A stretch of DNA of 64,000 nucleotides from Phallusia mammillata. Its lineage: Eukaryota. Location of the stretch: NCBI GenBank assembly GCA_965637545.1, contig OZ281494.1, positions 17,856,001 to 17,920,000 of the forward strand, written 5' to 3'. Below, one piece after another: positions 1,509 to 55,500 of the stretch (positions within the stretch are counted from its first letter, which is position 1; the number at the start of each line of letters is the position of its first letter). Made by a program: the position numbers and the translations under genes. The notes beneath the pieces are model-generated. The model saw only the letters and a program-made list of their open reading frames with translations. It searched no databases and was not told where the DNA came from.

Positions 1509-1864
1509 ATCACAGTACGCCAGGCCCATTGAAGGCGCTATACCGAATCAGCCGGTCACCAAGCATTCACCACCATATGGCAAGGCGTAGGCTAGAAAAA
1601 TCTAGCCTGCGGTGGGATTCGAACCCACGACAGGAGTCTTTCCGGGACTCGCGCTCTACCAACTGAGCTACACAGGCCCAGTGGAGAATCCGCCGAAAGT
1701 CGAATCACAAGCACCGTTGCCTGCCTCGTATGCTGCACATGTCAGCTTCGTAGTAGGGGATCTCCAGATTGACCTGTGATTTATATATGAGTGTGCCGTG
1801 ATCGCTGGTCTGCATAGACGCTTCAGGGCTGATCCCAGTTATGAATTTATGTTCATCTTAACTA
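1509..1864. mobile_element. 356-bp insertion carrying an internal tRNA-like gene
   Basis: Flanked by the 11-bp direct repeat TATTGGGTTAA (1498-1508, 1865-1875); more GC-rich than its flanks; no TIRs. Confidence 0.65.
1604..1677 (-). tRNA. tRNA-like cloverleaf (anticodon GGA), probably element-derived or pseudo-tRNA
   Basis: Minus strand reads GCCTGTG TA GCTC AGTTGGTA GAGC GC GAGTC CCGGAAA GACTC CTGTC GTGGG TTCGAAT CCCAC CGCAGGC T. All four stems pair, A and B boxes are intact and TTTTT follows. Atypical features: C33, an extra base before the anticodon stem, and a short variable arm despite a Ser anticodon. Confidence 0.6.
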
Positions 1865-7100: not shown

Positions 7101-10100
7101 CTGCTCGGATTTATCTGATGAGTGCTTGTGCGAAAAGCAAGTTGCCGATATCTGTAAACACGTCCAATTGCGAACTGACAAGTAATATCTATGATACCTG
7201 TAATATTAGTGGAATTATAGTTGCTTTGTTGTAGATTCTAAGAAATTGTTTGTAAGAGTTATTCACATTGTTTCGCTTCACGTAGTAATTCTTTTCTTAT
7301 TATTGAAATCTCCTTTCAAGTAAAACGACCGCGACGATTCAGGGTCATTAAAATCAGATGAAGAAAATTCAGTGTGAAAAACCACTAAATCTGTCGCTAT
7401 GTTTTATTTGTTTTATCAAAACAAATGCATTTCGCTATAAAAAGCATCATCAGTGTCTAAAAACAAAATAAAAAGCGGGATAAGAGCAAAAAATGCAAAA
7501 AACACACACCACCAGACCAACCGCAAAAAGCCTTTCCTCTGTTTCGCTTCACGTTTTTGCCTAAAGCGTTTTGAGCATGATATTTCAAGAAAAAATTGAA
7601 CTACTTTTTAGAACGGAGATATGTCCTGCAGGAACGGTTCGTTGTGAAATTTCGGACTTCAATCTGACATTATGCACACAAAGAACAAGTGTTTGCAATG
7701 GTGTTGCCGAATGCTCCTGGAACAATTTGGATGAAAAGTATGAGGTGCATGATGACACTCATTGCAATAAGTTAACAAATCCAATTACTCACCCGCAGAT
7801 ATAGCTACTGTGGTGGAACTTTACCCTGTAGTGCAGGACTGTTGGATGATGTTGGAACCGAATGCAGGTTGTTGTATGGACGTTATCACTTTCCAAACTT
7901 ATAAAGCTAAGCACATAAAATACATTTTATTTATGTCTTAGTATTTGCTCCACATACAAAATATACTCAAAAAGAGCGGCAGACGATCAGCGTCAGTGTA
8001 AAGTTTTATTTGAAAAAGAAATATTAATTTCGCTTATTAAGGCATCATCAGTTTCTGTCTAAAGAAAAGAAATGTATTTTTGACAAGTAAAGACAGATCT
8101 GTCGGTCACCACCCTGTTACAGAGGCTGATTCTTGTAGTCTGTTATGACATTACACTTATTTGCTCCACATGTTTCAGATGTACTGCTACCAAATGCAGC
8201 ATACACAATCCAAACAAAGGAGTACGAAGTGGAGTGCTATGCGACAGCGTGGAGGATTGCAAAGTGGTCGAACCGGGATTGCTTCTAATCGGCCAATGGA
8301 GCTATCCACCAGGTTTTCCAGAAGATGAGTGTGAAGCAAAATGTCCGAACGTCACTGGAAAATTTAACTGCACCCAGCGTGCTGCACACGGAGTTTCAAT
8401 ACCACAATATACCTTTTTGTGTAAAGTTAAAGTAAATACGTGTTATTGCAACCTTTAACTAACAACAAAATATTTGTAATTGTACTAAATTGTGGAGTAG
8501 GCCTAAACTCAATAACCTTCTTAAGACAAAGCTATTGAATTCTATAGAGTTTTTCATTTAATTTTTACAAATTTTATGAAAAGTTTCTTTATAAAATCGT
8601 TTGTGAACAAACGGCCACAATCAGAATATAGCCCTTGTATTTAATCTGCTAAATTCTGGGCAAAAAGAAATCCATACACGTCTTTCAGTTTCCGGGATCA
8701 TCTTTCGTGGGAGAATTAATTGCGGACAATACTATGAAATGCGATGGAATCCTTACTTGTACGTTTGACAACAGTGACGAAAAGGATTGTCCTAATAGGT
8801 AAGTAACAAGCATTTTTTGTATGTTTTGTTAATTTCTAGAAACAAGTCAGTGAAGCTTAATTTCACAAACGACTAGTTTAAAACATGCTTGAAATGGTTA
8901 AAACGTAGTTTTGTAATCTTTTGACCACAAAGGTTTGTGTGCCAAAGTGGCAACTTGGTGAATATTCCGAAGACAAAAGTGTGCGATGGTTACAAAGATT
9001 GCGATAATGGATCGGATGAGAGCAAAACACAATGTCAAAATGCAGACAGATTTTACTGCGCGTCATTGAATGGACGCAAGGTAAAAAAACACATGCAAGT
9101 TGTAAAACAATACAGCAACGTTTGAAAACTATCTTCAGGTTTCTGTATCGAAACAAGTGGTTTGCGATTTTAACATTAACTGCGACAAAGGCGAAGATGA
9201 AATGAACTGTTCTAGTGTGGATGGACGATTTTACTGTGAAAACGGAAAACCGTTTTTTGTTCATAAAAGCCGGGTAACTTAATTCATTTTCATTCATTTT
9301 TTCACAAAATTTACGTTTGCTCCTGTAATTGAATTTTCACACAAGATACTTGACGGTCGCGGGGATTGCAGCGATTGGAGCGACGAATGTTCTGACAAGT
9401 TTAAAACCTCTGCAACAATTTTATCTTCGCGATATGAATTGATAGCCGATCCCTTTCTTCGTGCTATTGTATGGATCATGGCTTTATTGGCTTTCTTTGG
9501 AAATTCAGTAAGTTCACCATGCAACATGCAACAGTTCTCCATGCAACATGGTGACGATATGTTTAAATTAAGATTGTCATTGTTGGAGAATCGAAAGCTC
9601 TCAAAAAAATCTTTTCCAAATCCCAAGGAGCGCCGCTGAGGACAAATCACATGCTGGTGTTAAATCTAGCGGTTGCTGATTTTCTTATGTCCATTTACCT
9701 GTTTATGTTGGGAATAGCGGGAGCAGTTTATAGTGGAAGTTATTGCTCACAATCTCTATCATGGCTCACCAGTCAATCTTGTGTTGCCATGGGAGTGCTG
9801 GTTGTGCTCTCAAGCGAAACGTCAGTGTTGACGATGTTGCTTTTAACAGGAAGCCGTCTATTTGCAGTTTATAATGTAAGTGGTGTATTAACACTCACAC
9901 CCTTGTAATAAATGGTTTACTTTTTTCAGCCGATTGCATCCTTAACCAAACCAAGTTTTCGCGTTGTTCTTCTGATGATTGCTGTCACATGGGCAATTTC
10001 CATTACATTAGCACTTGTTCCGCTATCGACTTATTATCAAAGCAGTTTTGTGGAACGGGCAATGATTGAAAGCAGTCCATACTTTAGCAATGTTGTCGTT

Positions 10101-10930
10101 AACTTTACTTCTGCTAAGAACTTTACCCTAAAACTCTTGACCTATTCGAAGCAGCTGGCCGTCCAACCAGACACATTGATACAACAAGTACAATCAATGT
10201 CATCATGGAATCAGTTAAACGACTTTTTTGCGTCACATTCTGATGGTTCCAAGCTTTTGAAAATTTCAAGCCAGTTTGGGTAAGTTGCTGTAATTAAGTC
10301 GTGGATTGTCACCTAATTTCCATTTCTGTAGCCTAGACCTGCTTGGATGTAAACACCATCATGTGTTGCAATCTTTAGATACTACAGTGTGAACAGTGTG
10401 TGTATACCAAACCTGTTTGTAACTGAAAAAGATGGGTCGTGGAGATTTTCCCTTACAATTTCCATCATTAACTTTCTTGTCTTCGTATTCGTGGCTTCTA
10501 CATACATTGCAATAATAATGAAAGCTCGAAGATCTGTCAACAAGTCCCACGGCGTTGGAAAGAAATCATTAGGTATTAAATTCGAAACTAACCGACTGAA
10601 CGTATTTAACGATATCATATTTTTGTAGCTCTTGAACGCAAGATTATTCGCTTGATCATCACTGATTTTTGCTGCTGGATTCCACTTTCAATCATGGTTT
10701 TCGTCAACTTTAGCGGAGTAAAGATCAACAGCATATCATACGCTGTAGCTGCGATTGTTCTTCTTCCTATTAACAGCGCCCTAAATCCCATTCTTTATTC
10801 CGATTTCATTGACAAAATCTACGAAAAACTTCGATCACGAAGAGGTGTCGAAAGTCATTCAAGTGGGCCGGTGGCTTCAACGTCCGTCTCTACAAATAAC
10901 CAGAATGTTCGTCTGAGGTCCATGCAGTAA
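4158..10930 (+). CDS. LDLa-repeat rhodopsin-class GPCR (GRL101/RXFP-related 7TM, no LRRs), about 945 aa, 15 exons
   Basis: Exons 4158-4230, 5040-5160, 6452-6796, 6993-7181, 7612-7737, 7799-7867, 8179-8392, 8689-8798, 8933-9080, 9139-9273, 9346-9507, 9573-9875, 9930-10279, 10379-10572, 10629-10930 join in frame. Signal peptide MFRWWDVRFPLLFLFLVNSLAVAQ; repeated LDLa motifs (e.g. CDGVQDCDGSDE, CDGIIDCSDLSDE, CDGYKDCDNGSDE); TM motifs LNLAVADFLMSIYL, IITDFCCWIP, LLPINSALNPILY. Confidence 0.9.
4541..4725. mobile_element. hAT MITE in GPCR intron 1
   Basis: 14-bp TIRs CAGTGCCGGATTAA / TTAATCCGGCACTG with a perfect 8-bp TSD GCTATGAC. Confidence 0.9.
5396..5751. mobile_element. Tc1/mariner-pogo-like MITE relic (right end only)
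   Basis: Several TGTAAGCCGC sub-repeats and terminus GCGGCTTACAATCGAGTAAATACGG-TA; no intact left TIR found. Confidence 0.55.
7956..8157. repeat. About 200-bp insertion between 14-bp direct repeats; related sequence near 7400-7480
   Basis: TATTTGCTCCACAT at 7942-7955 and 8158-8171; shares a GTTTTATTTG...ATTTCGCT...GCATCATCAGT..TGTCTAAA core with a nearby upstream intron of the same gene. Confidence 0.5.
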
Positions 10931-32055: not shown

Positions 32056-32062
32056 TATAAAA
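32056..32062 (+). promoter_or_regulatory. TATA box of transcription unit A
   Basis: TATAAAA with an Inr-like TCACTCACAGT about 28-32 nt downstream. Confidence 0.6.
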
Positions 32063-32084: not shown

Positions 32085-33185
32085 CTCACAGTCGAAGCGA
32101 AAAGCTGTTGGTTTATGTGAGATTGAGAACTGAAACTGTTCAAAACATGGATGTATACTTCAAACGAAAAAGCGTGGCGAAAGCACCGCCAAGAAGAGAT
32201 TGCAAGTACAAATGAAACATGGACTATATACACTTCATACAAATGTGAATTTTGAAGAAATTATGCATTTTCTAAGAAGAAACTAGAATGTCTAGTTGTA
32301 AGACTGACTGAAAGTGAAACGTGCAACTTGTTCACAACGAGGTCGCATTGTATATTACACTGATGATTTCTTGATAAAGACGAGGATTGCATCTAGCATG
32401 AGCTTTATCTCGAAACAGGCATGCGCAGAGAAACTTGCTCAGAACCTAAACGAGCAGCGCAGCAGCCTGCCTCAACGAAAACTAGTTGTTCACGATTTCG
32501 ACGTCTAGCCAGCCGCCATCGGGCCTACTATCTGCAAAGTAAAGCACTCAAGGATTCAGAAGACTGATGAGAGAACCCTGACTTTCGCAGATACGTTTGG
32601 CCAAGAATTCTGCCAAAAGAGGGACACTGTCCAGTAAAAGGCGCTGATGGAAATTGCTTTCAAGGTAAATTAAGTTTCATTACAGTTTTATTATCCATAA
32701 GGTTACCAATATTTATATAGTTGCAGTATTCATAAATAACAATAAACGAGCATAAATAACAATAACTTTTTTAGTGCAATGAAACTAATCATACTTTTAT
32801 CATTTTTAGAATTTTCAAAAACTTTCAACAACATCATTGACAACAATCGATACATTCTGATCACCGACAAAGCGTTTCTGACGCCTCACACCGAAACAAG
32901 CGCGAAGCAGTATCATATCATGGATTGGCACTGTAGCTGATGTAGTGAATATACAGCAGTCATTGTGCTACCACACGATCCTGTCTCGTGCCTACCATGT
33001 GACGTGATTATGCTCGTTAGGGCAAACATATCAAATCGACCGTTCATTTTTTATCAATGTAGTCTCAATAAGAAACGATTTTATTGTTTGTTTTTGTTGT
33101 TAATGTATTTGTATGTGTGTTTTACTCCGCCTTTGCTTTTGTTTTTCATGTTTTGTTGCAATAAATTGAAAAAGAGAGATTTTTG
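32085..33185 (+). ncRNA. Transcription unit A: spliced lncRNA or smORF transcript with a kink-turn hairpin
   Basis: TATA/Inr; intron 32665-32809 (AAG|GTAAAT, branch ACTAAT, TTTTTAG|); U/GU-rich 3' region and AATAAA at 33160; only short ORFs; homology blocks shared with unit B. Confidence 0.55.
32147..32940 (+). CDS. Alternative coding model for unit A: 87-aa unknown protein
   Basis: Exons 32147-32205, 32591-32664, 32810-32940 give MDVYFKRKSVAKAPPRRDCKYVWPRILPKEGHCPVKGADGNCFQEFSKTFNNIIDNNRYILITDKAFLTPHTETSAKQYHIMDWHCS. Good start context (AAACATGG), but the first donor is weak (GTACAA) and no homology is recognised. Confidence 0.3.
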
Positions 33186-36100: not shown

Positions 36101-39100
36101 TCGATGCACGCTAAGGTCATACTTCGAGTCAAAAATACGATTTAAGCTGATTAACATATGACTTTGCTAAAATGATTTGCACGAGCGTGTGCAATGTTGC
36201 CCATGGCATTTTTTAATATTTTTACTGCCACATTTTTAAATTAAGATATGTCAGTCATAGAAATGATAAAACGCGGTTTAATTTCAAAGGCAAATTTGTC
36301 GCGGGAATCTTCAGGTAGAGACCAAACGCCGACGGCGCGCGTCAAACCAATGGCGCGTCACCTGAAAACATCAGTGAATACAAAGGCGCCGAGGCCGAAC
36401 GAAGCAACCATTGCCTGTGATCAAACGCAGTACAAGTAAAACGCCGCCCCGCTTTGATTCTCCCGCCGTGAGAGGGAACGGATGGGCTTTGTGAATCACA
36501 GAGTGAACTCTTCACTTCCCACGCCCCATCTTATGCTGTGGGTGGCAAGGTTGCAGCACAGTCACTGTCCTCGAAAGTCACACCTTCTTTCCCTCGCGAA
36601 CCGCGTTTAATCAAGGCCCTCCGTCGCGAGAAAAGTTTATTTTTGCCCAAATTAGTCGATATAAGTGGCAGCGTTCTTAAATTGTGGTTGGTTCGCTGCT
36701 TGAAGACGGCAATTGCTGCGATAGTTTTCTGTCTATTTTTGTGGCCAATTATCGATCAGATCAGCTTTTCACACACTGCGAGGTTTAGTATACGATCTGA
36801 AGACTATTTTGGGGTGGAGAATCTTTATTGCGATCAGTTATGGGTCAGCATTTTGTTGAGTTTGCCCGTAAATCCTTTTTGCAACCTCCGACGAATAAAG
36901 CAAAACGTTTTGTCAAAAATTTGCGCTGATTATTTTTTCAAGACTTAAATTGGGTGCAACAGGGTGTAGAATAGTGCAAACAAGGGACATCGAGCCCATA
37001 TTTTCGTCTGTTTGGCTCCGGTGCCACGTAACACCACTCCTGTTATATTTTCGTGAAGTCTATCACGTTTGAGCGCAATGCATCCATGCACGTGCCACAG
37101 CAAACCCACCATCAATTTCGCCTGGTGGCCGTCATGTCACCTCCGGCAACACAGCATAGATCCGCTGGCGGTCTTGTGACGATTTCCACACGCCCAACTC
37201 ACACCTTCCACCTCGCCTTCAAGCGGAAATCGGCGTGTCGCCTCGTTAAAACACAGCCCTTGAGGCGCGTGACTTTGTTGTCGGGTATGCCATATCAAAT
37301 TGCTACTGCCCGTTTATGGAGAGAAACACGACGACTTGGTTGCACTCTCTTTTTTGTAACATACCCAACCATCTTCCATTGTGAGTAACCACTACAGTGG
37401 CATCGTCTGGGTTTAAACAAGCGAAATGGAATGACTGGCAGGCGACGATTGAGACTCGTCTACATATTTTGAATCTGTGGGACCGCTTTGGCATTCTCAT
37501 AGGTTCCAGGTTAGACACCTGTCGCAGACGCAATTTACACGCTTCGTTTAAAGTTTCCCATGACTTGAACATGTTGACATCGGATGTTTCCTGACTATCA
37601 TAACATTTATGGTTGGTCGGTGGCGTGGGACGAATACAGGTGCTCCGCAGAATTCCAATCCCAAATCAAACATGCCTTAAGTAAAGCGTGTCAGTAAGTT
37701 TTCCCATGTAGCTATTTCTAAACAAGGTGCTGAGCCTGGTGGTCGTAAAATCCTTTTGGATTCCATATTTGGCGAAAGTGATTTTTCTTTTTTGATTTTT
37801 GGCAAAAGATTGAATACAAAACATCCAATAGGTTTAAAATTTGAGCACAAAAAATGCCAACGACCAATCAAAATAAAATGAAATATTCCTGCTGTTTTGG
37901 TTGTTTGGTTTCACAGATCGCAATTGTCGCTTTTGTCAGGATCCGACCTGTCAGGGTGTCAACTCAGTTCAACTTAGATATTACATTTTAATTCCAACAT
38001 TCTGAAAGCATAATGTTTTAGCCTAAACATATGTAACGCTGACTAGCAAACGACCGCACGTAGACAAGGCAGGGTAAACAACCGCCAAATGGCCGGAAGG
38101 GGCCAACGGACAGTGTTTACCTGAATGTTATTGCGACCTGTTCGTTTTTTACAATTGTCCTGAATTTAGACGAGGGAATTTTTGTTGCCACCCAATTTAG
38201 AGCTCAGGCACCGAGGAGCAAGAAGACTTGTTCGAACAATGGGACAAATAGGTCTTTAAGCGCCCGTGAAGTAGGCGACGACACTTTGTATCCAAGTGGC
38301 GCATGGCAACGTTTATTATCGGAAACCCTGGCGAGGTTGTTGTGATTTCAATGTGAAAAAGATTGGAGTGATGATTAACTTTTTCGCGGGCCGCGTGGAG
38401 CGCCAACGGGGAGCATCCTTTTTTGTTCAGTGGTTAACGGGGGCCATCAAAGCAATTCAGGCGCCGGGCCACAGGGGCGCGCGCAGCCAACGACCATTAC
38501 AACCGCCGGTTCAAAGAAACACGTCGAGCGCCAATAAATCGCTCGCTGGAATGGCAAAGACAAACATCAGCGGTGTTTTGCAGTGCCACTCGAACGCTGA
38601 ACGGTATCCGGAGTTCAAAGAAGCCTTGTTGAGCCCCTCATTTGTTGGTAACGGCGAACATGTGTTAGCGTTGTGTTTTTGTTCAACCTTGAGCAAACAG
38701 GAACGCTATGATCCGCCTGCTCGGGCAGGTAAATTCCTTTCAATTCCGACGAGGTGACTTTCAATAATCGTGTTTAGCTATGTGAACCACTTAACAAAAT
38801 TTGTGTTAGTTGTATTGCACGAGGTGAGCAGGCTTACCGCCTAGACTCGTAGAATTACTTTTTCCCAAAATAAGAAATAAGCTTTTCCATGACATTGTTA
38901 TGTTCGTGACGTCAATCGTTTCTCAACATAGCCAGTTATACGCACCTATCATATTTTAAATCAACATACAGTATTCATCGATCGAATTATTTATCAGCAT
39001 GTACACGAAACGACGTTTTTATATTCTGCACTAATCCAATAGTTCTAATGCTACAAATGACTGTAAAAACTCATTGAAGTTTATACCTGTAAAATTAGTG

Positions 39101-41239
39101 CACGCTTGCAAAAAGGAAAAACATAATGATCATGATTCAGTTCTGCTTAGTCGCCAGACATTTCTACAAATTTGCGTTTGCAGCATTAATTATTGTTGCG
39201 GTATTGAAAACAATCCACTTTCTGTAAAAGTAAAAAGTGATACTTTTCTTTCCAAAACAACTAAAAAGCAAGTGGGGAGCATAGGACCAGTCGATGAAAA
39301 CATGGAATAACCCTATGTTAAATTAATTGCGCTATGCACGTGATGGACAAAGTCTGCATCATATACCATCCATAATTTCATTTCATGCCCCAATATTGGG
39401 GGCATCCCTAAAAACACCACAGAAAACCATAACGCGTGATTGCACAACAGTTAGCCCAGAAGTTGTGCTACCGCAAGGGGTTTCACCCTTTTACTGTTAC
39501 ACAACACTTGCGACGTGTCTTTCGTGCTACTGTCAAGGTTTATAAATTCCCCGTCGGGTAAAAGTAAACTTGTGGGCAATAACAATAATAGCCTTCTCGA
39601 ATGTTCCACCAAGTCAGCAATTTTGAACAACAACAAAACTGCTGTGTCACCTTGTCGCCGGAAAGCCACGAGTTGATTTCAAGAGGCTCTGCCTTCTCTC
39701 TTTTTAACTCTGCGAAAGTGCGAATGTTTTAAAATACGTAGGAGTTATTATGATGCAACATCGCGCCATAACATGTAGGAATGCTTTTGCATTGTCGAAT
39801 TGGGACACGTTGTATTACGTTGGGTCGTTGCGAAAACAAGGATGAATTGCATTTTCGTGCATTGGGGTTGAAGTCAAGAACATTTTCTTTAGCAGGCAAA
39901 ATGCTTTTTTACGGACTGAACAGAAACAGCACATTTACTATTTCTATTAGACGCGTGGCATATCAAACAAGATACACATTGCGTCTAACCCCAATAGGCA
40001 ATTGTATTGATACATTTTGTTGACATGTTTAAACAACTGCGATCGATCATGTGGATTAATACCTCTTGCACGTGATCAGAGTGTTGCGCGTTATCAGTGA
40101 TGTGTGGCACCCATTACCTTTGTGATTCCCTGTAGTGTTTATTTGAATAATGGGGTCAGCAAATGGACTTTGGTTCATAAAGTGCATGAACCCATATAAT
40201 CAAACACATGTGGAGGTGTAACTGTGGGAGGCGTGATATTAGGCGTGACAACCAGCGAACTTGCTGAGGCCGTTGAATGAACTTTGTACCATGTAGCAAC
40301 CTATAACACGCGGCAATCCTTCCAACACGCGTAGAGACTTGAATCAATTGATTGCGACACCAATCTTGGTCGCTGACTGTTCGTTAGGACATATGTTGTT
40401 TTTCTCACATTTTCCAAAGCGTGGCAAAATAATTGGGCGAGCCCAGACACGCCCCTTCAGGTCAAAGACGGTTGGAAAGCTGTTGGCTTGAGTGACGTTT
40501 TGCACCAATGTGTTGCAACGTTACACAAAATAATTGGTGTCATGTTTCAGGTACAGACGTTGGTGCAACAAATCTAAGACATGCGAGAATGTTTCGGTCA
40601 AACCGTTTCAGGGATTTATCATCCAGAAATGCAGGGTTAAATTTGTACTGTTATTCGTTTATTACCGGGTCAAATTTTTTCTGCATCTACGCCAATTTGA
40701 TGTTTTTGCAACTGCTGCTGAACATATGTGTATCAGCACGAATTGCGCTTTCAAAAATGTTAATGAAGTTTGTTTCCACTGTACTTTCAATTTATTTCCG
40801 ACCGAAACTATTTCATTTGCAAGGATGTCCCAGCTTCTATTGTTTTTCAAGCGCAACGCAAATGGTATTCAGTAACAACAACTTAAATGTCACCACACGT
40901 GCTTACCATGGCATGGAAACACCAGGTCAGTGTACCCACAGAGCAACTGATTCGTAAAAAATGTGACCCCGCTTATAGGGTTGGGAAACTCAGACCCCAA
41001 TTACGAAAATAGCCTTGCGTTAAACACGCTCAGTCAATATTTGGCACATCGTGTCACTTACAATGCACCGTTTCTGTAATGGAATTTACCAAGTTACTTT
41101 TCTTAAGTATGTTTCATAAAATTGTTTGCCTAATTTAGTAGAGTAAGTGTTTGCTTGTAAATTGGTATTAAGCCTTTCTCTCCACCACGTCAAATTTAAT
41201 CAGTGTTTAATCCTGCCTGAGTGTGAAAACAATAAACAA

Positions 41240-42495
41240 TGTACATTTTCACCCAATGTTTTATTTCACCACAACACAAAAACATATAACCATGTAAATA
41301 TTGGTTTGTTTGTGAACTTGGTTTAAAAAGGAATACAGGGTACAAGGCACATTACGAACGAAATATTGCGCTTTAAAAGAGACACAATAACACAAAAATT
41401 TGCGAAAATACGCAGTTGTCGAGTAAACGTTATACACGTAATGATCAAACATAGTGTTGTAAATCGTTCAATACACGAAGGACACAAGCATTCACACATG
41501 CATGTGCGTCATAGAACGATTACAACGTCACTTGACAAGATTTGGCTGATTTTCACTTGTTTCTTCTGATGCTCACGCGGGGATAATTCACCCGGATGTG
41601 ACGATACAAGCTAGTTTCGCCGTTTGCTATCTACAAGAGAAAACAAAATTTCGGTCAATTACATTTCAAGTCACACAATACAACCAAATATGTTTTGTAA
41701 AATCAAATCGAAAGCGATTTATAGTCACTTATCACTGGTGCATATGACGAAAAAACACATAAAAACACAAACAATTTGATTAAAAGTACAACTTACAGCG
41801 TTTTGGCGATTTGTTGTTTGTACAGGATCACATCTTGAAATGTAGAGAATGTCGCAGAACTTGTTTTTTTGTTTTGTTTATATATACAGCCGCAAGTGAA
41901 GCTCCTCTCATCAGCATGTTGAATCCCAGAGGTACACTTTGCGAGTCAATAAACAGTTTGTGAGCAAGTTCTTTTGCTTTTTGCTCTTTGAAAGAGTTCA
42001 AAACTAGCAGTCGTGTCGACAGGCTGATGCTTGTCTTTTTTGTTGCAATTTTTTTCTTGTTTTTTCCATAAAGGTCTTTTTTTGGTGCATCAGTCCCCTT
42101 GCAAACGCTCGTGCATGGTAGCATTCCCTGCACTTGTTCGGGGAACCAACTTGGCAAAACCAAGCCTGGTCTCCGACACGACGCTGCTAGTAGATGTAGC
42201 TACGCTGCTACGAAGCATTGTTCGATATTGTCTTTTGTTTTTTGAAGTTTTGCCACTGTGGATGATACAGCTTGACTTCTTGCAAACATATACAGTCCAA
42301 AATTCAGAGATAGGTAAGTAAATTCGTTCTTCCTCCAAGCCAGTAAATCTTCGAGAATCCAGACCAGCTCGGTCCAGAATCACTGCCAGTGGAGGCCCAT
42401 GACGACGAATTTTTTAAGGTTTTTTAAACACTAAAAAAACCAACAACTGTACACTAACAGCACACACTATACAGCACGCCGTTCTTACAGAGAAT
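41240..42495 (-). ncRNA. Transcription unit B: spliced lncRNA or smORF transcript, apparent paralogue of A
   Basis: TATAAAA at 42526-42520; Inr CTCATTC with its A at 42495; intron 41796-41631 (GTAAGT ... TTTTCTCTTGTAG); AATAAA at 41265-41260 followed by a GU-rich tract; same kink-turn hairpin as A. Confidence 0.55.
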
Positions 42496-42519: not shown

Positions 42520-42526
42520 TTTTATA
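42520..42526 (-). promoter_or_regulatory. TATA box of transcription unit B
   Basis: TATAAAA 31 nt upstream of a consensus Inr. Confidence 0.65.
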
Positions 42527-43540
42527 CGAGCCAGTTGCGATAGCAAACAGTCACGGGACATGTACCTTATAAGGCGATCACGTGTTTCGGCGTATTGCGC
42601 AACACAACGGAAAATCATTGTGATTCGCCTTTGTGAGGGTTGGGCTTGTCCAAAGGTTGTTGCGAAGGGTGTGTAGGATCGGCATGTTTCGAATTCTTTT
42701 CTGTGAAAATGTTTAATGAACCAAAGACAACAACATTCACGAGGCAAATATCACTTTTTTACCCATAAACTGCATTTTATGTATCATTTAGGTTGCTATG
42801 AATATTAGTGACATCCTTACAACCTGACTTAGACTCCGTTTATTTTGCGTAAATTACTTTTTAGCCGTCTTAACTTTGGCAAACGAATATGTTTTGCTGT
42901 TGTGAATTGTGAAGTGACATAGGGCCGGGTTTGTTTTGGAGGCGTCACTCCGAACACGCCTCCAGCGATGACGCATCGGGAATCCCCGTCACTTTCACTG
43001 GCGCGCGGAATTTTTGGTGAAACGTTTTCGATTCGTAAGTCTTGTGATGAAGAAGCTGCAATACGTACGAAAATTAGTGGAATTCAGAGCGTGATATCCC
43101 TGCCATTAGGCTTGCCAACTTGCCACAGGCAATTTTCACGACTGCAGAATTTTTAGCGCACCCGCAGCTGGAACTGAACATATAGTGACGTGTAAGTTGT
43201 GACGTCAGGGGAAGGCGGACCTTATTGACTGGGCATTACTAATTGATGAGTCGTTTTTTGTTCGAACATTCCTTTGTTAACTCGGTGTACAAAATTAGCA
43301 ACATGTCGGGACATTATTTGATCTCCCGTACGTACGGTATTGCGAATCAAGTTTTTTTAATCTTTTTCAACATTGCTTTGTCACTGGAAAATTGATGATT
43401 CAAATGTATACAATAAAAGAAGTCATGGTGGATTGTTTTTTAATTATACCAACTTTTTTTCTAGTCGAAAGCACTTGGTGACTTGGTAAAAAAATAATGT
43501 ATTTGCCAATCACATAACCTCAAGCCATTTTGCCACTGTC

Positions 43541-46500
43541 ATGGATTACACTGAAGAACAAAAACAAGAGTTTGAGGCACTTTCTGCCATTTTGATGGAT
43601 GATTTTGTCGGTGTGTGGAATAGAATATGTTGTAGTGAAAAGTGTGATAAACTATGTTTAAAAACTAATCTTTGTGACAGCTTCTTATTCAAGGATGTTT
43701 TTGGATCCTAATATAGCAAGTGCTTTAATACTACATGGGAATTTTACACTTAACCAATAAAGTTGTTTTCACTTCACAGACCTCGCCACCACTCCAATGT
43801 CATGCATGATTACCTTAAGTGGTATTGTGACAGAATCAAACACTACTTTCCACCTAAAAATCACATTGCCAGACAATTACCCTGATGCAATACCTTATGT
43901 TGATATTCCCATCAGGGGCCATTCTCACCACAATAGTCTGAAAGTAAACTTAATTCAACATTTAAATGACAAGGTAATTTGTGGTACAGACTTAAATTTG
44001 TTTATGAATATGTGTAAGATTACTTACACTCAGACCCACTTTAATGTTGTGGACTACTACAGTTTTTTATTTGGTTGAGTTCTAATGCTGATGTTTATTA
44101 TTAAAACTGGAATTTAAGTGTTTTTAATGTGAACAGTTTCTTTAGGCCCAAGAAAACCTTGGATCCCCATCTTTATACACTTTGGTTGAAGAGGCCAAAA
44201 GCTGGCTAGCTGAACATTTGCATGATTACAATACACAACAGAAAAACATAATTGAAGTGGAACAAAAGCAATCAATTGATGAAACAGTGAAGTTAGAAGA
44301 TGGTGGTCAAACTGAATCTGAAGGAAAATGGGATTTTGTCATTGGTCTTGTGGTAAATATTGCTTCTAATCATCACTTGTAGCAAACTAAAGTACAATGT
44401 ACCAAGGTGATATGTATAAATTCAATGTTTTTATGAGTTTAGAAAACGATTCATAAATGCTACCTAAATATCATTTTTGCTATTTAGTTTTGTTATTCTT
44501 ACATCTTATTTAGGGCAAGCCATCAGCTGGAAAAAGCACTTTTTTCAATGCCGCAACAAAATTCCCCAAAGCAAAGGTTGGAATTCATCCATTTACTACA
44601 ATAGAGCCAAACTTTTCACAAGCATTCTACTCAATACCTGACCCCACCAACAACAGAGGAATTGTCTCTGAACCTGGTAATTGTTTTTGTAATAAACTCT
44701 TATGGAAGTGCCATTTTTTAAATTTAAATTATCCATGTATAATGTGTGTTTGTGTGTTGAATTAGACCCAATACATCAATACAGGTTGTGTATTCAGTGT
44801 AGGTTTAATAGTGGCTCATTTCATTTATTTTAAGTATGGATATCTTTCTGCACCTACCATCTTTTATCACATAATTCAAAATTTTGTAGACACAATGTTT
44901 TAACTGAAAGTATTTTCATTGATTGAAATATTGTAATATTAATTCATCCAAATACAGTGTAAATGATCAACAGAATAGTTGTCAAAGACCCACACTTCTC
45001 CTCATGACATCACATTCTTGTGGTGAAAAGCAAAACCTGAGTCATTATGCTTATGGCCTTAAGGAATATCATCAGGTGAACTATGTACCTCAGTGAAACT
45101 GTGTGGCAATCAACCACTGGCTTGCCTGTGAAATTCTGAACCCAAGTAAAACATATTTACCATTGCAGCTTATGGAAAACACCATGATGGCCTGCGGTAT
45201 ATTCCAGTGATTTTGAAGGACGTTGCGGGGCTGGTACCAGGTGCGTCCGACGGGAAGGGCCGAGGAAATCGGTGTGTAAATACTTTACCAAGATATTTTT
45301 ATCGATTTGGAGCATTTTGGTTTGCAGATTTATTGTCTTATCGTGTCTGAGTGGCCTATTGATTTTTGTGGAGCTGGTGACTTACGCAGATGGTTTGGTG
45401 CGTCACTAACTGACGTATCCCTCCGTATGGGGGTGTAATATCAGTCGCGTATATGCTAAAACTCGTTTAAAAAACAGCGATAGCAAATGCTTTTTTGGGG
45501 GATATTTGCAGCATAAACGTCAGTAGTCCTCAAACTGTTTGTTTTTCAACAAGCGATTGCTATTGTGGGTGTTGGAATATGTACCTAACACACTCTATTA
45601 ACCACATTTTTAACAAACGTTTATGGCTGCTAAGGTTGTCCTTGACTGTGCATCCATTTCGGGAAATCTATTTCACAAATACCATACAACAATCCATCTG
45701 TTTGAATTGATCGATCGTCTCTTTCCAAAACTAATGATCATAAAATTTACACACTTTTGATGTAGATACCAGATGAATTGGGTTAGGAATTTCATAGGTC
45801 ATTTTTCCCCAACAGATAAGGCTACAAGCGTTCATGCTAAGTACAAAAAGAAATCTTTAATGCCTATGCGATAGAATGAACAAGGCCTTTTTTATTTTGC
45901 ATTTGTTGCCAAATCGTGGTGTCGACCTTACAATTAGGGTTCATATCCCAAAATATATTCCGGATTGGGGAAATGATTGCGCTTCAAAGTAACGGATATG
46001 TTGCATTTAGGACTCGTCCGTTTTTAATGTGGTAACGGATGTCTTTCCTCTGACGCTATCTATGCGTTAACTTTCCGAAAGAGCGGACCATTTATGACGC
46101 AACGAAAACTCCCTAAGTTTCTCAATAAAACATGGTTCGCATTTGTGCTGTACTGTAGGTTCATTACCCCTAATGGTAATATATGGTGACGACCTATGTT
46201 AATTCTTATGCAATCGCGTGTTATTCACACCCATATGCCTTGCGATGAGCAATGTCACACCAGGGCGAGCCGTTCTCTCGTGCGAGGCGTGACGTAACAT
46301 GTACCGCGTCACGATTTTTTCCAGTTCTGACAGTCGAACATCCAAAGCACAATACTTGTAAATTTGGGACTTTTTATCATCACCTGTACTGGACCACAGA
46401 AAAATTTACGGCGATATCTTTGTGGAGAAAAGTTTAGCCGAAGTCATGTGCCTCTTGAATCCATTGGAGAAAGTTTCACTAGATTGCGGTTTTATCACAC

Positions 46501-49500
46501 CCGGGCGAAATTGGATTGGTCACAAGCGTTTCCTGAACATATTTACGCAAGATAAACGAATGATATGTTCACCGGGCACTTTCATCGGAGAAACAACGGA
46601 TAAAAACTGTTGCGCTTATTTGGTTTTCTGCACTATATGTGGGTCTTCGTACCCCACATTTTGTATTTGGCCTAACGAGTTGAATAAGCTGAAAACAAAA
46701 ATAAACTCTTGAAAAGCTCTTTCTGAGAAAAGTTCCAGAATAGCAATTGGGACAATTATAGTACTGTAAAGGAAGTTATGTTTTATTGTTGCCTCGTGTG
46801 TAAGGGTTTATATTCATCTGGACCGTATTAGGTGAAATTGTACAAAACTTCACGACTGTGCATTAAACTAGTACTTTATAACCAGACAACCCATATATGC
46901 CCCGTCTATTCGTGTTACTTACAGTTAGTTGCAGGAATTGTAATTTTTTGGGTGGCATAAATTCGTAAAAACGATCGCTAATTTTTGGGTTGTCTTTATT
47001 AACAACTTTATTTGACGTGGACCCTTTTTTAATTTCGGATTATAGGTCGTTTCATTAGCGCTAACAGATTGAAAGTCAATTACGGAAAAATGATTTTGGA
47101 TTAAAATGTTAAACGCCAATTTCGCATGCCACGTGTTTTACGCGTTACTTTGTATTGTGAAAATCTGTGAGGGACGCTTGTACTTTGCAACCTCAAAATC
47201 ATTATAAATCGTTTCATGTAAAAAACACGATGCTAAAAGTACAATATGCAGCAATATATTTTATTCAGTTGTTACCGCATTGACGGTTTCAATTTCGTCT
47301 CGTTTCCGTCCTGTTATAAAAATACATTAGATTTCTCTGCGCGAACACTGCCACTATTTATGATGTGAAGTTTACTTTTTATCGGTGAAGAACATCTTGT
47401 ATTTATGAAAGTGCTGAACTTTCACATTAGCCCATCCCACAATCCGGATCCCTAAAATAGTACGACTGAAATACCTAATGTCGGGCTTTAACGTCAATGC
47501 GACAAGTTTGTAGCGTTACAAAGCAGGGCGTATATACACGCTCGTCGGAGCTGAAGGAAATCGGAAGCGACTTGCTCCAGTTTCATACGTAGATGCGGCC
47601 AGGTCTGTCTGCCCACAAGCACCTATTTTTGTTCTTCAAGAAAGCGTGGCCATTGATTGTTGCCGCGCGTTGAAAGGTCATGGTCACTGAGAGTTTGTGT
47701 TCGCCATAGACACAATATTGAACTGTGACGTCAATTTAAACCTATGTCCAAGACGCGCATGAATGACCCTATGCTTTTTGTGTGATCATTACCCGGTAAA
47801 ATGTGTGGTTGCTAACTAAAGCGTTTGACGCAGAAGAGTAGTGAGAAAATTGCTGTTTTCACAGATTGATGATTTATGCCGAAACAATTCCCGCCTTTGT
47901 GCAAATGAACGTATAGTTTACCAGCGTATCTTGCCAAAACGTGTAGTGTATACCTTAATGTATCCGCGGTGGTGGATTATTTTGTGCCGGTATGGAGAAA
48001 CTACAATCCGTAGACTTTACGATCGCTCATCAGGTGTGGCAAATCATTGACGCGACGCTAAGTAAATTTAACGAGCGTCGTGTTCCAGTAAAAAAGTGAA
48101 TTGGAAATCTGCGATCTTCCAGCGGATGTTTATCCCTTCTGGGAATGACGCTCGCATCGCTATTGATTAGTTACAAGCTGAGGGTAATGTTTTCAACTGT
48201 GACGTATTATACTCAAATTTATGACACGTTGCCATGATGCAAAACCCCTAGTGAAGTAATTGTGGTAATTTGGAAGAATTTTAAACTTGCTTATATATTT
48301 ACTTTCAACGTGTATCGTGTAAAAGTACGTCATTTGCGATTGCTGTTTCATAAATAAGCACCAACCCACTAAGCTGACCGCCAATTTCCGACTTCAAGTG
48401 TCGTATACCACATACGTCATGGGATCTGAGTCTTTGACATAATCTATATAAGCAAGTATGAAATCATACTAGATTGTATTCATTTTATTGTGTTGGTAAA
48501 ACAGTCCAAAACAATGGCCTGCTATATTCAGTGACTATAGTGTATAAGTACCCCGTTTGTTTGTTTTTTAAGGCGAAATTATTACCAATTTACCTCCTAC
48601 GTGTAATGTTTAGCCTTGCCAGCGAAAGTTCGCGACGTGTAACCGGACTTCTACGAAACGCGTTTTTGTCATAATCTCACCCCTAACCGCGCATCCGTCT
48701 TACCACACGACCGTCCGCCGAATTACGTAACGTAACTCGTAAAATAGCGATGCTAGCTCATGATGTCCAACGAACTCGCCAATTGCCCAGAGACGGGTTA
48801 AATAAACTGAACTCGTAAACGTTGTAGCGCTTCCGCATTTTGCCTGCGTAACTTACAAGTAATTGGTTTTTCTGGCTGGTTATGCCGCAACGACGTGAAG
48901 AGACTACGTCAGCAGCGCTATGATTGCTAAGCAACCAAACAAACTTTATCTTTAGACTACATTTGTGGTTTGTAGTAAAACGTTTTGCACATTCCCATCT
49001 ATCCATTTAGAACAAAATAATATGCGATTTGTTTTTCTTCAAATTTGAACTTTTTCTTACCCAGTGCAACGCCAAACAATCGCCATTTTTTATGCGTTTA
49101 AAATAAAAATGACGATCGTGGTGCAAAATCATGTTTTTTTCCTTCTGACATAATAAAATTTATTAAGATCTGTATGGGTTAGCATCTAATTCATTTGTCT
49201 AAATTTTTATGTTTAGTCACACAATAAAAATATAAATCGTTTGAAGGGATTGTCGACATAGAACATTGTTTGATTATTTACACAAACAATCGTTTTGGCG
49301 TTCATGATCAAACATTAGTAATTTGCACGAATCTCTTATAAACGTGTGGTCACAAAGGGTTGAAAAACTTCGGGATTACTCTTAAACATAACAAATCCAC
49401 GGGTGGCAGGAAATGACATTGGGAAACACTAAATTAGCATTTGTCATATCATTTCATAAAATGCAAGGTCATGAAACTGTATCAACAACATGGCGTTCCG

Positions 49501-52500
49501 TTCCAATGTTCACTGTGCTCGTGGTGACACAGCAAATTCCGTGTCGTTTTTAAATCGTAAGCACGAGATGCCTTTGTAAATACGAATCACGTGCTCGCCG
49601 CAGAATGTCGAGTCATGATTTCGTTTCTCTGCAAGGGCTTTTCCCGTTTAAGCAAAAATGTGCCGACTAAAAACCTTTTTTGAAATGTCATTGAAACTTA
49701 TTCCATTTTTTTGCTTTTTCACCGAAAATAAAGGAGTCGAATAAAATAAACACGTGGTGCTTAACATTGTCAATAACTTACACGAGACAGTGTACAGTGT
49801 AAAAATTAACACAATTATGAATGTATAAAAGTATGCAAATAACGCTTTTGGGCAATTTGTTTCGGTACACATACCTATAATTTGTAAATTTACTTTGTAA
49901 GTAAATTCAGCATATATTTACCCACAATTTAAACCGTTCAGCCTTATATGTAAACAACCGCATCAATGCGCATCAACTAGCACCGAATGTCAACACAAGG
50001 CCAACTTTTTCATTTCAAGGTCGCGCCTTTTTGTCTCACCACTAACTGCTAGAAAATTGCTCTTGTATTTTGCATTACCTAGTTAATAGCTATATGTGTT
50101 TATTTTTGTTCTCGCCCGTCCTTGATATTTGTGTATAATTTTGTTTAGACGTGTGGGCGCGGCAAGCACTGCGGTAACAAAGATGAAGCGATATATGTGA
50201 ATGCGACTGGGCTTGGTTTTGTACCACTTTGCTCACTTTAAACACCCTTATTGGTGAACTGCGATTCGCCAAGTGTTTTATATGGTGCTTGTTTACAGTA
50301 AATGTTTTGTGGTCGAAATCCAGGCCGTTTTAATCCCGTCCTTAAACCTAAATCCGGAAGTTTGCGTCCGCTTCGCAGTAATACCGGCGTGGGTTTCTGT
50401 TGAAATTGGCCACGTTAATAGTCACACGTCCCCCGTGAAAACGCTTCAAAGAAAAACCACCAATTACTTTACTAAACTATTCTGATGTGTATATTGTCAA
50501 ATACCATTGCAATTCGTAAAAAATGTATTGCAAAGTGGTAAAACTTATTGCCTTGGGTTTGTTGGTTATTACACTCGCCTGTAGAACAGGTTATCTGAGG
50601 AGGTTTGTATAAGCGCCCACACCATACGTGGCTGTGGCTACTTGTATCGTAATTACCAAACAAGTACAACTTTCCACGTATAAAATCGTCATTACGATCA
50701 GACAATTATTGTATTGACGCACAGACCTTTGCATGACCCATGTGGTCTTAACAGTCAATCAAATGTGTCTTGCAAAATTGCTTGCAAGAGACTAACTTGA
50801 CATAGTTTTGAGCTTGTACATGCAAGGCATTGAACCGCCAACCACCACCTTGGCCCATTGTCCAGTAAACTCAACAATCACAATCTCGTTCCCTATCCCA
50901 CGTAATTGCCTCCGAATGATGGTTACATTGCACAGCTAACCCATATTTTCGTTGTTAGCGATCCTTGAATTACAGGAGTTTGGTTTCGCCGTTTAAGATT
51001 TACAATGTAAATGTCGAACGCCTGTAAACACGCCCATTGTAAGATCACAATCAACATTGTGCGCAGGATGTCATTATCTTAAAATTTCGAAATTGAACGT
51101 GCGCCGGTGTCGTGAGCGATTTTATGCATGTTAAACTTTACATACAATTCAACCAAAACCAATTTTCAAACTGAGTTTCCATATTGCCCACTCATTAACG
51201 ATGGAAACAAAGGCTATTTCCCACCTACACTGGAGATAATGGATCCCGGGCAAAACTTTAATGCGTCATGATTCATTGGTCGTGCTTCCTTGATATATTT
51301 TTGGATTTCTTTTGTCGACTAATAACCGGTAGTTTGTTTTTGCCCTATTGTTTAATGTGTGAAACCAATTGTGTCAATGCTAATTATTCCCCAAACTTTC
51401 CGTACCTGTTACCAAATATAGTTTGATTTTCTATCCTTGGACTTTCTGATATGAGTTTTAAATTTCGAATTAGACAGCATTGTTTGGGCTTATGCCAAAA
51501 AATCGTAAGCTGTAAATATTTTTCTGGTACGGGCTTGTTATGGTCACAAGAGCAGCTTTTCCCCTTCTTGGGAGGACGAACTCGCGTTGCCCGTACCTTG
51601 TACATTTTCACCCGAACGTGCATGAAAACCCACGACCGACTGCAAACTGATGTCACTAACACATCTTGAATTGCTGTTGCAGTTTCCTCAACGACCTGTG
51701 CGACGCAGATGTCCTTATTCACGTTCTTGATGCTTCCGGTTGTACGGACGAGTGTGGAGAGCAGACCGACGCGCACAACCCCTCTGATGACGTCACCTGG
51801 CTGCTGGGGGAAGTCCGGTAAGCGTCCACCTGTCGTGTTTCGCTGTTTTTTCGCTCGGGAATGTCGCAACTTGCGCTTTGATAGTTACGTCAATTCCAAA
51901 TGTCAGCATATGGTGCTGCTGTTTCTGTGACATGTGACAAATGCACATGACGTTTGGGGTTTGCCGAATTGGATTGTTGGTGAGCGTGCGAATTTTATCG
52001 TCACAACTCACAGCATAAGTTGTATGTCTATTTTAAATTAAATATTCATTGTCAACAAGTCCTTTACCGATAAGTATTGTAGCTTAATTTAGTCCAGCAA
52101 AAATAAACGATGTTAAAAGTTTAAAAGCTTTACACGGAACATATCGAAAACATAACTTCGAAAGTTGAAACTGAATATTTAGTCGGACGAAACAACGGCT
52201 CAACCACATCATGTGCGTATTGATGACCGTTAACAGCCCGAACACTTGGGGACACCTAGCGGATAATGCGGATCACGTGCTGGTGGTTTCCCATGCGCGT
52301 GAACAGACAAGCCCTTTCCTCAATATTCGAAACCGAAAAATAGTTCCTCTCATAGCTAGAATTTCCAGGAGCGGTTTCTATGCAACCGTCCCATGACAAT
52401 AAGAAACTGCCATCGATACTTGAACGTGAAACTGCATTGTGTTGTTTTCCTGGTTGGTTTATAATTAAAGCATGTACTTACTTTTAGTGAGTGGATTTAC

Positions 52501-55500
52501 CAAAACGTGCAGCGAAAGTGGGAGATGATTGTGAAACGACCCAAGCGTTTGATGGGAATGTTTACCGGCTACCATTGTTCACCGCAGCTCGTTCAAGCGG
52601 CATTCGCTCGCGCAAACCTGTCAACTAGGTATGTGAATTTATTTGTACACAACAAATAATGTTTTGTTTAGAGATTTATGGGGGCGTGAAATTCCCGTGG
52701 GTAGAAATTCAAACTGTTGCTGTGAAGATCGTGAAAGGAGTTTACCACAAGCTGAGTTTTGTTTATACAGCGTTATTTTTTGACTCGGGTGGATTTTTTA
52801 CCACACAAACGTATACTTAAGACTTCTTTTACCACTTTGTCCCGCCTTCCGCTTTACCATTACGTTTAACTCTCTGCAGTGTATAATATACACAAATTTG
52901 TTGTGTTGTTCAATCAACGATCTGATGCCTGCGAAACCAGTAAAACCCTTTTTCGCCATACAGACATGATTCGAAATGTATGCGTGGAGGTTGATCGGTA
53001 TTTATGAATGTTAATTTCATTATCCTATAAGTATAAAAAGTTGACACATTTATACAAAGTAGTTTGTGTTGAATGGTTATATAGATAATCGGTGGTATAC
53101 TAATATACTTTTTGGAAATTGTAACTAAAAAAAACTGTACCTGAAGTTATCGTTTGTTTTTAGTGGGATCCCTTGTGGTTTTCATTACGAAACGTCCAAT
53201 GCATAAGTTGTCTTCAATTTGTCTGTGCAGCAATTGAGCATTTTGAATGACGCTTGCGTTTTCTGTAAACCATTCGTTGTTTGTTTTTACTGGCAATGCT
53301 TGTAAACAGACACAGGGCGCGAAGCCTTCTTACGGGAATTTCGATCTTCATTTCATTGCCCGGGTTCAAGGAATCGCGACGCTTCGCGGGTTGTGGTTAA
53401 TCGTTCTGTGTTTGCATACAATGGAATGTCAACATCGTTATCCCTAGATGCGGCAGACAGTTGCTGTTGACAAAACATAGGACGAACGTACGTAGGCAAT
53501 CATTTTGCAGACAATGTGAGGCGTTCTTATGTCGCCATGTCTGATATGTGATAAGGAATTGGTTTGTTTGTGTTGGGAATTCTTGAGGGTGTTGAGGTTT
53601 TTTGGACATTATGAACGGCATTCTTTGATTAAGTGTCATTCAACGCTGAGAGTGAGACTAGGTTCTACGTCCTCTCTGTTACGACAGACGTTTTTATTGT
53701 TGTCTGGATAAATCAGTAGCTTACATTTTTGCTTTTAGTTGAAATGGAGAGACAATTATTTTGCATGCGACAATTCAAATTTTTCGTGGCATGTTCTTTT
53801 CTATTTTTATGCAACACAAGTTCGTACTTTAGACGGCTGATTTGTATACCACAGGTTGGAACCAAACCATTTTTATTACTTAACTACAATTTAAAATGGT
53901 TAAACAGAAAAAATGCTCATGTTTAAATTCTACTTGCCATCATTATCAGGAAAATTTTACGTGGATCACGCGACAGGCACGTGTAGTTCGTGGCAACACG
54001 GTCACGTGATGTTCATGTGACCCGTCACACGCTGAGCTTCTGTACAACGTGTATGTAAAGCATGCTTAACGACACCCATACATTTTCATTTGTTAGGCAG
54101 CTATCGGAAAAGGAAATTTGACACCAGCCTCCGCGGGCCTGCATTCAAAAGTTATGCCTGTATTAAAATCTGACCACGCCGCTGCAGAAATTCTCAAAAC
54201 CGGCAATTTTCTGCAGTAGGATTTCCTGCAGGCCTTACGTTAATTCTACTGAAACTCGAAACCGTCCCTGTAGTTTACATATACGATTGGTGCATATGGT
54301 TTCATTTGTTTTTCGGCAGGCAGTTTTTCAGGTTTTGTACAATTGGCCCAAAGTATGAAATCAAATGATTAAAGATTTTGCAACGAAACTGACAATCTTT
54401 TTGGACTTTTAAGTAATTTTACTAAATGGGTATTGCTTTGAATTGCTTGATAACACCGCGATATGTGTGCATCATTCCATTTAAAAACAATCAAGTAATG
54501 TTTGTGTGCAGTACACATTGCACATAAATGCTACATAACCTGTTACCTAATGCTTCCAAGGTAAGTTACGTCATTTAGTCCACGTTGGAAGCGAATTTTT
54601 TTGTTATGTAACAGTCACATGATTTGCCGGAAAAACGCCTTTTCTGCTCATTGGCGACACCACGTGATGAATGATTTGTGTCATTATAAACAACAGGATT
54701 CGGTACGGAGAGTCAAAACAGCAAATGTTCTAATGCTCTCTTTGGCCGAAAATTTTGGTCGGAAAACAGTCACTTTTGTTGTTGGATACCCTTTTAAACA
54801 CTATTTTCGTATGTTAGCTGTGCATGAATATGAAAACTTATTGCTTGGGTCAGTTTGTGTAACTGCTTGGCACAGCACCGAGCATCAAATACAGCTTTGG
54901 TATAGGTACTGTGTACTCTGGTTCTGACTCGGCCCATCCCTGGTATTCAGTGCCCCACTCTGTCTATTGTATTACTTTTACTTGAAATTTTGTTCCGTGG
55001 AACGGATACCGCAATTTTGTTCTAATAACCTTGTTATTTTTGTTCTGGCTCCAACTGTCAAATACACAAAAATATGTATGTAAATCAAGCAAAAAGTAAA
55101 CACACTTGTCGTGTGAAAAATGGTAGTCCCCTGTGCTAATATTGTGGTCTTCGAATTTCCTGGCTACTGAGATGTTTTGCTGCTGTATTTCCCAGGAGAG
55201 TACTTCCTTTGTTTCAGGAATATAGAAGAGACTTTACCAACATGGTCCGATGACGTCCTACGAAGATTAGTCGATTCCTTCGTCGATGTTCGTTTTCCAA
55301 TGTTACTGGTTCTAAACAAGAGTGACGCTTCCAGTTCCCATGCTAATATCGACAGGTAACACGTTTTGTTTACGAAGAACAAACAAATGTTTCCTCTCTC
55401 ATCGGCCTTATCGTTTCGTTGTCATCGTCATTAACACATCCTGTGTAGTTTTTACTAAGAATTAAAATGATAATTTGCGTTGTTATGAAATTGCTTCTTT

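Follow-up and report, generated by a model that had tools for sequence, protein, structure and literature searches.

Eukaryotic kink-turns (k-turns) are found mainly in rRNA, in the U4, U3 and box C/D RNAs, in RNase P/MRP, in SECIS elements and in the yeast RPL30 message. In the 5′ stem-loop of U4 and U4atac the k-turn lies near the tip of a hairpin and is bound by Snu13/15.5K; in SECIS elements helix II runs for about 11–12 pairs and carries unpaired adenines on top; and the RPL30 k-turn sits on the splice donor. A definition of the standard k-turn is given in the accessible part of PMC8191799. According to the available text of PMC5689011, C:G at −1b:−1n favours folding in ions and U:U at 3b:3n is intermediate in this respect, and even those k-turns that ions fold poorly will fold once L7Ae is bound. 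As to the proteins, the accessible portion of PMC1874613 states that the preferred base at bulge position 3 is U for Snu13/15.5K, L7Ae and SBP2 and C or A for eL30, which can nevertheless take G, and that SBP2 also favours a purine–pyrimidine fourth pair. Yeast eL30 uses a k-turn in its own message to control how this message is spliced and translated, and eL30 is a SECIS-binding protein as well (PMC3706390, in its available part). Here we describe this known motif in an unusual setting, on the basis of two copies that lie in a spliced transcription unit (A) and a predicted one (B) within a 64,000-nucleotide stretch of Phallusia mammillata DNA (hereafter, the window).

The 59-nucleotide string at 32532–32590 (plus strand) matched letter for letter the reading in the initial annotation, which had taken it for a standard k-turn. 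In the unit A hairpin, 11–12 pairs with one bulged C form the outer stem (32530–32540 with 32581–32592), which an internal loop of 6 × 7 nucleotides separates from a C-stem of three pairs (CUC/GAG, 32547–49 with 32571–73). Beyond the C-stem come an AAG bulge (32550–52), the non-canonical pairs G32553•A32570, A32554•G32569 and U32555•U32568, and a four-pair NC stem (UCAG/CUGA, 32556–59 with 32564–67) capped by an AAGA loop. Unit B, with which the annotation had compared unit A, was located by a local search (Table 1); its core has a UGG bulge, a three-pair NC stem, a six-nucleotide loop and a fourth C-stem pair. Judged by their letters, both copies fit the standard k-turn consensus, with all of its sequence features present in A as well as B: the tandem pairs next to the bulge (AAG-GA/GA in A, UGG-GA/GA in B), a Watson–Crick C helix of three pairs in A and four in B with C:G at −1b:−1n in both, and, past the U•U at 3b:3n, an NC helix of four pairs in A and three in B. 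The pair at 4b:4n is U:A, and the third position of the bulge is G in both copies (32552 in A, 41926 in B).

Contigs from four runs, which come from four coded studies and are not recorded as RNA, skip a GT..AG intron in unit A, and are therefore spliced cDNA, which fixes the strand. The intron starts 74 nucleotides after the hairpin, and the spliced product is about 946 nucleotides long, above the 200-nucleotide criterion for a long non-coding RNA. That the motif belongs to a Pol II transcript, as had been proposed, agrees with unit A being spliced, preceded by a TATA box and on the motif's strand. In run X2 an 18-letter loose end, presumably a template-switch adaptor, stands ahead of 32088, and in two runs low-depth cover reaches upstream of the TATA box. 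By sequence comparison unit B, 9 kb away, is a distant gene copy of unit A for which the same layout is predicted: upstream of the hairpin, the exon 1 sequences of A and B gave a global alignment score of 110 vs 79.9 ± 11.3 in shuffles, only 2 of 300 of which scored as high, and the similarity of the second exons was not significant (33 of 300 shuffles as high).

Table 1. Features of units A and B in the window (positions in window coordinates).
Feature	Position	Strand	Basis
Unit A TATA box (TATAAAA)	32056..32062	+	sequence; 32 nt before mapped 5′ end
Unit A exon 1 (contains hairpin and many short ORFs)	32088..32664	+	contigs of 4 runs
Unit A second shared motif, about 45 nt upstream of hairpin	32463..32487	+	pattern from both copies
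Unit A hairpin with outer stem, internal loop of 6 × 7 nt and terminal k-turn	32530..32592	+	sequence, folding
Unit A k-turn core (C-stem, AAG bulge, G•A, A•G, U•U, 4-bp NC stem, AAGA loop)	32547..32573	+	sequence; strict scan
Unit A intron, 145 nt, GT..AG	32665..32809	+	skipped in contigs of 4/4 runs
Unit A exon 2, U/G-rich tail, AATAAA at 33160	32810..33178	+	contig ends 33178 (X1), 33174 (X2)
Unit B TATA box, predicted promoter	42520..42526	−	sequence alone
Unit B predicted exon 1, distant paralog of A exon 1	41797..42495	−	global alignment
Unit B second shared motif	42002..42026	−	pattern from both copies
Unit B hairpin, k-turn core 41905–41931	41890..41944	−	local search
Unit B predicted intron, 166 nt, GT..AG	41631..41796	−	splice-site consensus alone
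Unit B predicted exon 2, AATAAA near 41265	41240..41630	−	sequence alone

The units share a second motif, for which the pattern built from A and B has two matches in the genome and in which no helix common to A and B was found. In unit B, positions 42003–42019 and 42173–42191 (minus strand) are predicted to form a 17-pair long-range helix that includes this motif and has no counterpart in A. About 110 nucleotides into exon 2 each unit has a further hairpin; the one in A has a stem of 19 positions, three of them mismatched, and no bulge; it shows no Rfam match, and its 5′ arm begins with letters that we take to be a miR-96-type seed. Upstream of the unit B TATA box lie a CArG box (42565–42574), a κB-like site (42978–42987) and a CRE (43200–43207), a set that we assume to be of the immediate-early type. 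These promoter motifs hint that unit B could be an immediate-early gene, the same short motifs also occurring elsewhere in the window. Between the units, 38907–39606 contains CRE, TATAAAA (39023, minus), CArG, κB-like and heat-shock-element-like matches with no k-turn nearby, and may mark an enhancer or a further small transcript.

The units are flanked by a MYST acetyltransferase gene that ends near 26750 and by RWD and Obg-like GTPase exons that start at 43760; four long ORFs checked in the roughly 17 kb between these genes matched no family. The adjoining KAT5 exon is 100% identical to the Phallusia mammillata protein and 93% identical to that of Ciona intestinalis. Consecutive exons at 43761–56230 (plus) match RWD and Obg-like GTPase (YGR210-type) and are possibly one fused gene. 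Further features of the window are a gene at 6396–10930 (plus) for a receptor with LDL-receptor repeats and a rhodopsin-type domain (weak Pfam matches; a homolog search with a neighbouring GPCR exon returned nothing), a perfect 37-nucleotide inverted repeat with arms about 1 kb apart (235–271 and 1267–1303), and a tRNA-like gene at 1603–1678 (minus) with a GGA anticodon and a short variable arm, which is odd for tRNA-Ser.

When the two copies were matched by structure, 31 of 34 structured positions were identical (25 of 28 paired positions and all six core positions) compared with 9 of 25 unpaired ones (Fisher P about 1e-5), the common structure having been derived from the same two sequences that were used to test it. 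Both indels between A and B sit in unpaired parts. Conservation thus tracks the predicted fold, as did the observation in the initial annotation that the identities lie mostly in the core and stems while loops and bulge vary. All three changes at paired positions preserve pairing, and the outer-stem changes are those described before, one compensatory (U-A to C-G) and one to a wobble (C-G to U-G). Both fall among the four outermost pairs of the outer helix, outside the k-turn, and none of the 10 inner pairs varies between the copies (n = 2 sequences), so that the covariation originally claimed for the k-turn stem-loop is confined to these two outer-stem changes and does not extend to the k-turn itself. 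The sole allele difference within the hairpin among the four runs, at 32576, is in the unpaired internal loop. When 200,000 random copies of A were given the same 15 substitutions, the core was kept in 4,232 (2%), and the core together with the outer stem in 77; in a looser control, with the common structure re-chosen for each copy, at least 14 shared pairs were obtained in 239 of 3,000 (P about 0.08). We regard a conserved RNA hairpin as highly probable.

A strict scan for k-turn hairpins on both strands of the window returned units A and B and no others, a count that by itself proves little, since the two copies are related. Among 100 shuffled windows, which held 0.17 strict hairpins on average, 17 had at least one and none had two; a lone strict k-turn hairpin is therefore not rare, and the weight rests on the comparison of the paralogs. 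In the 240-Mb genome the k-turn hairpin pattern had two matches, and DNA searches for a third copy with A and with B each recovered the query alone. A looser pattern had 11 genome matches, of which the other nine scored at most 12.9 bits with a covariance model and were without the stems; this model was run on the window and on fetched loci, and the genome-wide copy count comes from the patterns and DNA searches. Five copies of a dispersed repeat (L008, L009, L010, L013 and L014, near 1500) match the loose core pattern, again without k-turn stems. Searching metagenomes yielded 79 matches at chance level, the best of 23.9 bits as against 83 and 74 bits for the model's source copies; none of the 79 had both outer-stem motifs, three had the 5′ motif alone and four the 3′ motif alone. 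The Rfam check recommended earlier gave no match to the hairpin in either unit: at the gathering score the window's sole match was the tRNA (1604–1677), and at E up to 10 the four matches in unit A and two in unit B were at chance level and none lay on the hairpin. Nor is the element described in the literature searched on kink-turns, ascidian RNAs, lncRNAs and L7Ae-family targets, in which subscription journals were thinly covered.

Folding statistics differed between the copies. The unit A fold (32529–32593) was more stable than all 200 shuffles (z −2.5), with z −1.5 over the wider interval 32525–32600, and its antisense strand folded better than the sense strand (z −4.1 vs −2.5). The unit B hairpin was not unusual against shuffles (z −0.3), and its best predicted fold has the C-stem register shifted. 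Within the whole spliced RNA, pair probabilities for the outer stem were 0.94–1.0 in A and 0.31–0.98 in B, and those for the C-stem were 0.41 in A and 0.73 in B under an energy model that ignores sheared pairs. We think it likely that the RNA truly adopts the kinked fold.

We compared the element with each known class that it might belong to. Neither spliced unit contains the RUGAUGA of a box C/D snoRNA, the 4b:4n pair is U:A rather than G:C, and an alternative CUGAUGA/CUGA pairing is open to A alone; the best scores against snoRNA families, 16.5 and 18.3 bits, were far under the cut-offs and away from the hairpin. For a SECIS element, the 5′ core strand has AGGA (unit A) or GGGA (unit B) in place of RUGA, the NC helix has 3–4 pairs, AA occurs in the loop of A alone, no SECIS family in Rfam matched at E up to 10, and there is no upstream ORF with a conserved in-frame UGA, the read-through frames being dissimilar. 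U4 and U4atac snRNA had no Rfam match, whether at the gathering score or among hits with E up to 10, and where a target of Snu13/15.5K or SBP2 has U at bulge position 3, both copies have G. The CUGAUGA of a hammerhead ribozyme is present, with no room for stems I and III and no GAAA. Against telomerase RNA we found one six-letter partial template match in A and none in B; against an archaeal-type H/ACA hairpin with a k-turn, a pocket that is not conserved and, in B, the lack of an ACA at the required distance; and against a reading of the k-turn hairpin as a pre-microRNA, large loops and no conserved 22-mer. The element is outside the box C/D, SECIS and U4 families.

By its reading frames the hairpin is not conserved for protein coding: tandem UGAs interrupt one frame in A and B alike, the frame of B's ORF is broken by two stops in A, and the third, which follows a stop, lacks a start codon and changes register at a 2-nucleotide indel. 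None of eight ORFs scored above a Pfam cut-off (Staphostatin B, at E 0.005–0.03, was below its own). The 98-codon ORF of unit B (41828–42124, minus) lies behind three upstream AUGs and ends about 30 nucleotides before the predicted junction; two homolog searches found none for it, and an atlas lead to a helix-turn-helix (0.82) was set aside when a low-confidence single-sequence model gave two long helices (pLDDT 61, pTM 0.26). An atlas search with a 107-amino-acid frame found nothing, and eight exact protein look-ups were negative, including those for two exons of neighbouring genes, and are therefore uninformative. The RNA of unit A and the predicted RNA of unit B are probably non-coding, apart from possible micro-peptides, with B's 98-amino-acid ORF being the one covered by the ORF homolog search.

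The G at bulge position 3 in both copies would narrow the list of candidate partners, with eL30 as the best fit. Of the L7Ae-family proteins that had been proposed to bind, SBP2 and, less strongly, Snu13/15.5K are disfavoured by this G and by the U-A at 4b:4n, whereas eL30, which tolerates G, stays on the list (PMC1874613, accessible part). The chances that the partner is an L7Ae-family protein at all seem to us evenly balanced, and the choice of eL30 over Snu13 or SBP2, which draws on the G at position 3, is a tentative one that we hold with some doubt. The kink lies at the tip of a hairpin whose loop differs between the copies, which argues that it likely serves to dock a protein rather than as an architectural hinge for tertiary contacts. 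Because neither gene encodes an L7Ae-family protein, autoregulation is excluded.

Our preferred reading, to which we give an even chance as a whole, is that the k-turn in the A and B hairpins docks an eL30-type protein that controls these probably non-coding RNAs at the level of stability or translation. The exon-1 hairpin would kink at its tip in the RNAs of both units, and an L7Ae-family protein, of which eL30 fits best, would dock on the kink. The short ORFs stop far upstream of the exon junction, which by established rules would make the RNA a target of nonsense-mediated decay. In the most speculative step, the bound protein might shield the RNA or block scanning ribosomes, much as yeast eL30 acts on its own message. 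An extension of this scheme, which we consider improbable, is that A and B are members of a signal-inducible lncRNA family whose stand-alone k-turn is tuned by the G at position 3 to a free L7Ae-family ribosomal protein such as eL30, either sensing or soaking up unassembled protein under stress or competing with SECIS elements for eL30 and thereby tuning selenoprotein synthesis.

The same structural evidence would fit equally well a GA stem-loop that an hnRNP A2-like protein reads as a transport code, although we think this unlikely. GA motifs of a similar kind direct RNA transport in neurons (PMC3153643, in the part available), and G at bulge position 3 removes the typical L7Ae contact (PMC1874613, likewise in part), yet the geometry is exactly that of a standard k-turn with a 3-nucleotide bulge, C:G at −1 and U•U, which is an L7Ae-family target. 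It is also conceivable, if rather improbable, that the conserved letters are linear motifs, namely protein sites on RNA or DNA, and that the hairpin and k-turn pattern are incidental. Such motifs would account for the invariance of all 10 inner pairs and for the second island, conserved 45 nucleotides upstream in the absence of a shared A/B helix, and the frequency of strict hairpins in shuffled windows (17/100) and the result with re-chosen structures (P about 0.08) are in keeping with them. However, the conserved blocks are nested complements between which loop identity drops to 9/25, and the three changes at paired positions keep pairing, one of them as a U-G that is possible on the sense strand alone.

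It is typical of microRNA hosts to be spliced, to carry short ORFs and to be driven by signal-responsive promoters, and the exon-2 hairpins present in both units (32926–32970, plus, z −1.6 in A; 41458–41524, minus, z −2.7 in B) would suit a processed small RNA, either an exon-2 microRNA or the k-turn hairpin itself released as a small RNP, with the k-turn aiding processing. The exon-2 hairpins of A and B do not resemble each other in sequence, though, and no microRNA or snoRNA family scores meaningfully in either unit, and we judge this reading highly improbable. We give even less credence to a SECIS-like recoding element that would direct UGA read-through to yield small hidden proteins. It would explain a frame of 205 codons in exon 1 of unit B (41799–42413, minus), whose only stops are two UGAs (P 0.007–0.013, dinucleotide shuffles), as well as the matching frame in A, in which UAA is absent and UAG occurs once (P 0.057 for exon 1; 0.002 when spliced), the frame being kept across two of the four gaps between shared islands. 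This pattern was nevertheless spotted after the fact; the read-through products of A and B are dissimilar (best E 0.31) and had no match among families or at other loci; an early start codon is lacking in B's frame, and A's, besides its UAG, runs past the transcript end; and the hairpin has neither the SECIS core U nor a helix II of sufficient length, nor does Rfam match it. The stop-poor frames, with UGA only in B, are probably due to chance. Recoding elements of the SRE and HRE types are simple stem-loops at UGA, according to the available part of bioRxiv 10.1101/014928.

If the scheme of a signal-inducible lncRNA family is borne out, the hairpin would represent a k-turn regulatory RNP outside snRNAs, snoRNAs, SECIS elements and autoregulated ribosomal-protein messages. 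A conserved k-turn in a fast-changing, probably non-coding exon would be a rare defined handle on lncRNA function that can be tested by a four-letter mutation, and the hairpin could serve to detect orthologs that escape a plain sequence search. Should the fold be incidental, a pair of undescribed ascidian transcripts remains.

Compared with the standard k-turns of the Kt-7 class, as treated in the accessible parts of PMC8191799 and PMC5689011, the element shares the 3-nucleotide bulge, the tandem G•A/A•G pairs, C:G at −1b:−1n and the C and NC helices, but has U:U and U:A at 3b:3n and 4b:4n instead of A:G and C:G, and it belongs to the exonic sequence of a spliced animal RNA, not to rRNA or a riboswitch. 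With the U4/U4atac 5′ stem-loop it has in common a bulge on the 5′ strand, a short NC stem and C:G at −1; it differs in having G instead of U at bulge position 3 and U•U instead of a Watson–Crick pair at 3b:3n, and its host, unlike U4/U4atac, is a spliced RNA of 0.95 kb. The box C/D k-turn also has a U•U at 3b:3n beside the sheared pairs, but its non-bulged strand reads CUGA where ours reads AUGA, and our element is exonic and comes with no guide or second box. SECIS elements, bound by SBP2 and eL30, resemble it in combining tandem G•A with U•U in a Pol II transcript below a stem that bears an internal loop, whereas here no U precedes the GA of the bulged strand, the fourth pair is pyrimidine–purine and there is no selenoprotein ORF. 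The GA-motif transport RNAs, as described in the available part of PMC3153643, are likewise stem-loops with tandem G•A in a non-housekeeping RNA, and a sequence relation to them is not expected. The yeast RPL30 k-turn is similar in being exonic, in belonging to a Pol II transcript, in preceding the 5′ splice site and in having a protruding base other than U (PMC3706390 and PMC1874613, each in the part available); in Phallusia mammillata, by contrast, the k-turn stands 74 nucleotides from the splice donor, has a simple 3-nucleotide bulge, and belongs to a host that is not the gene of a binder.
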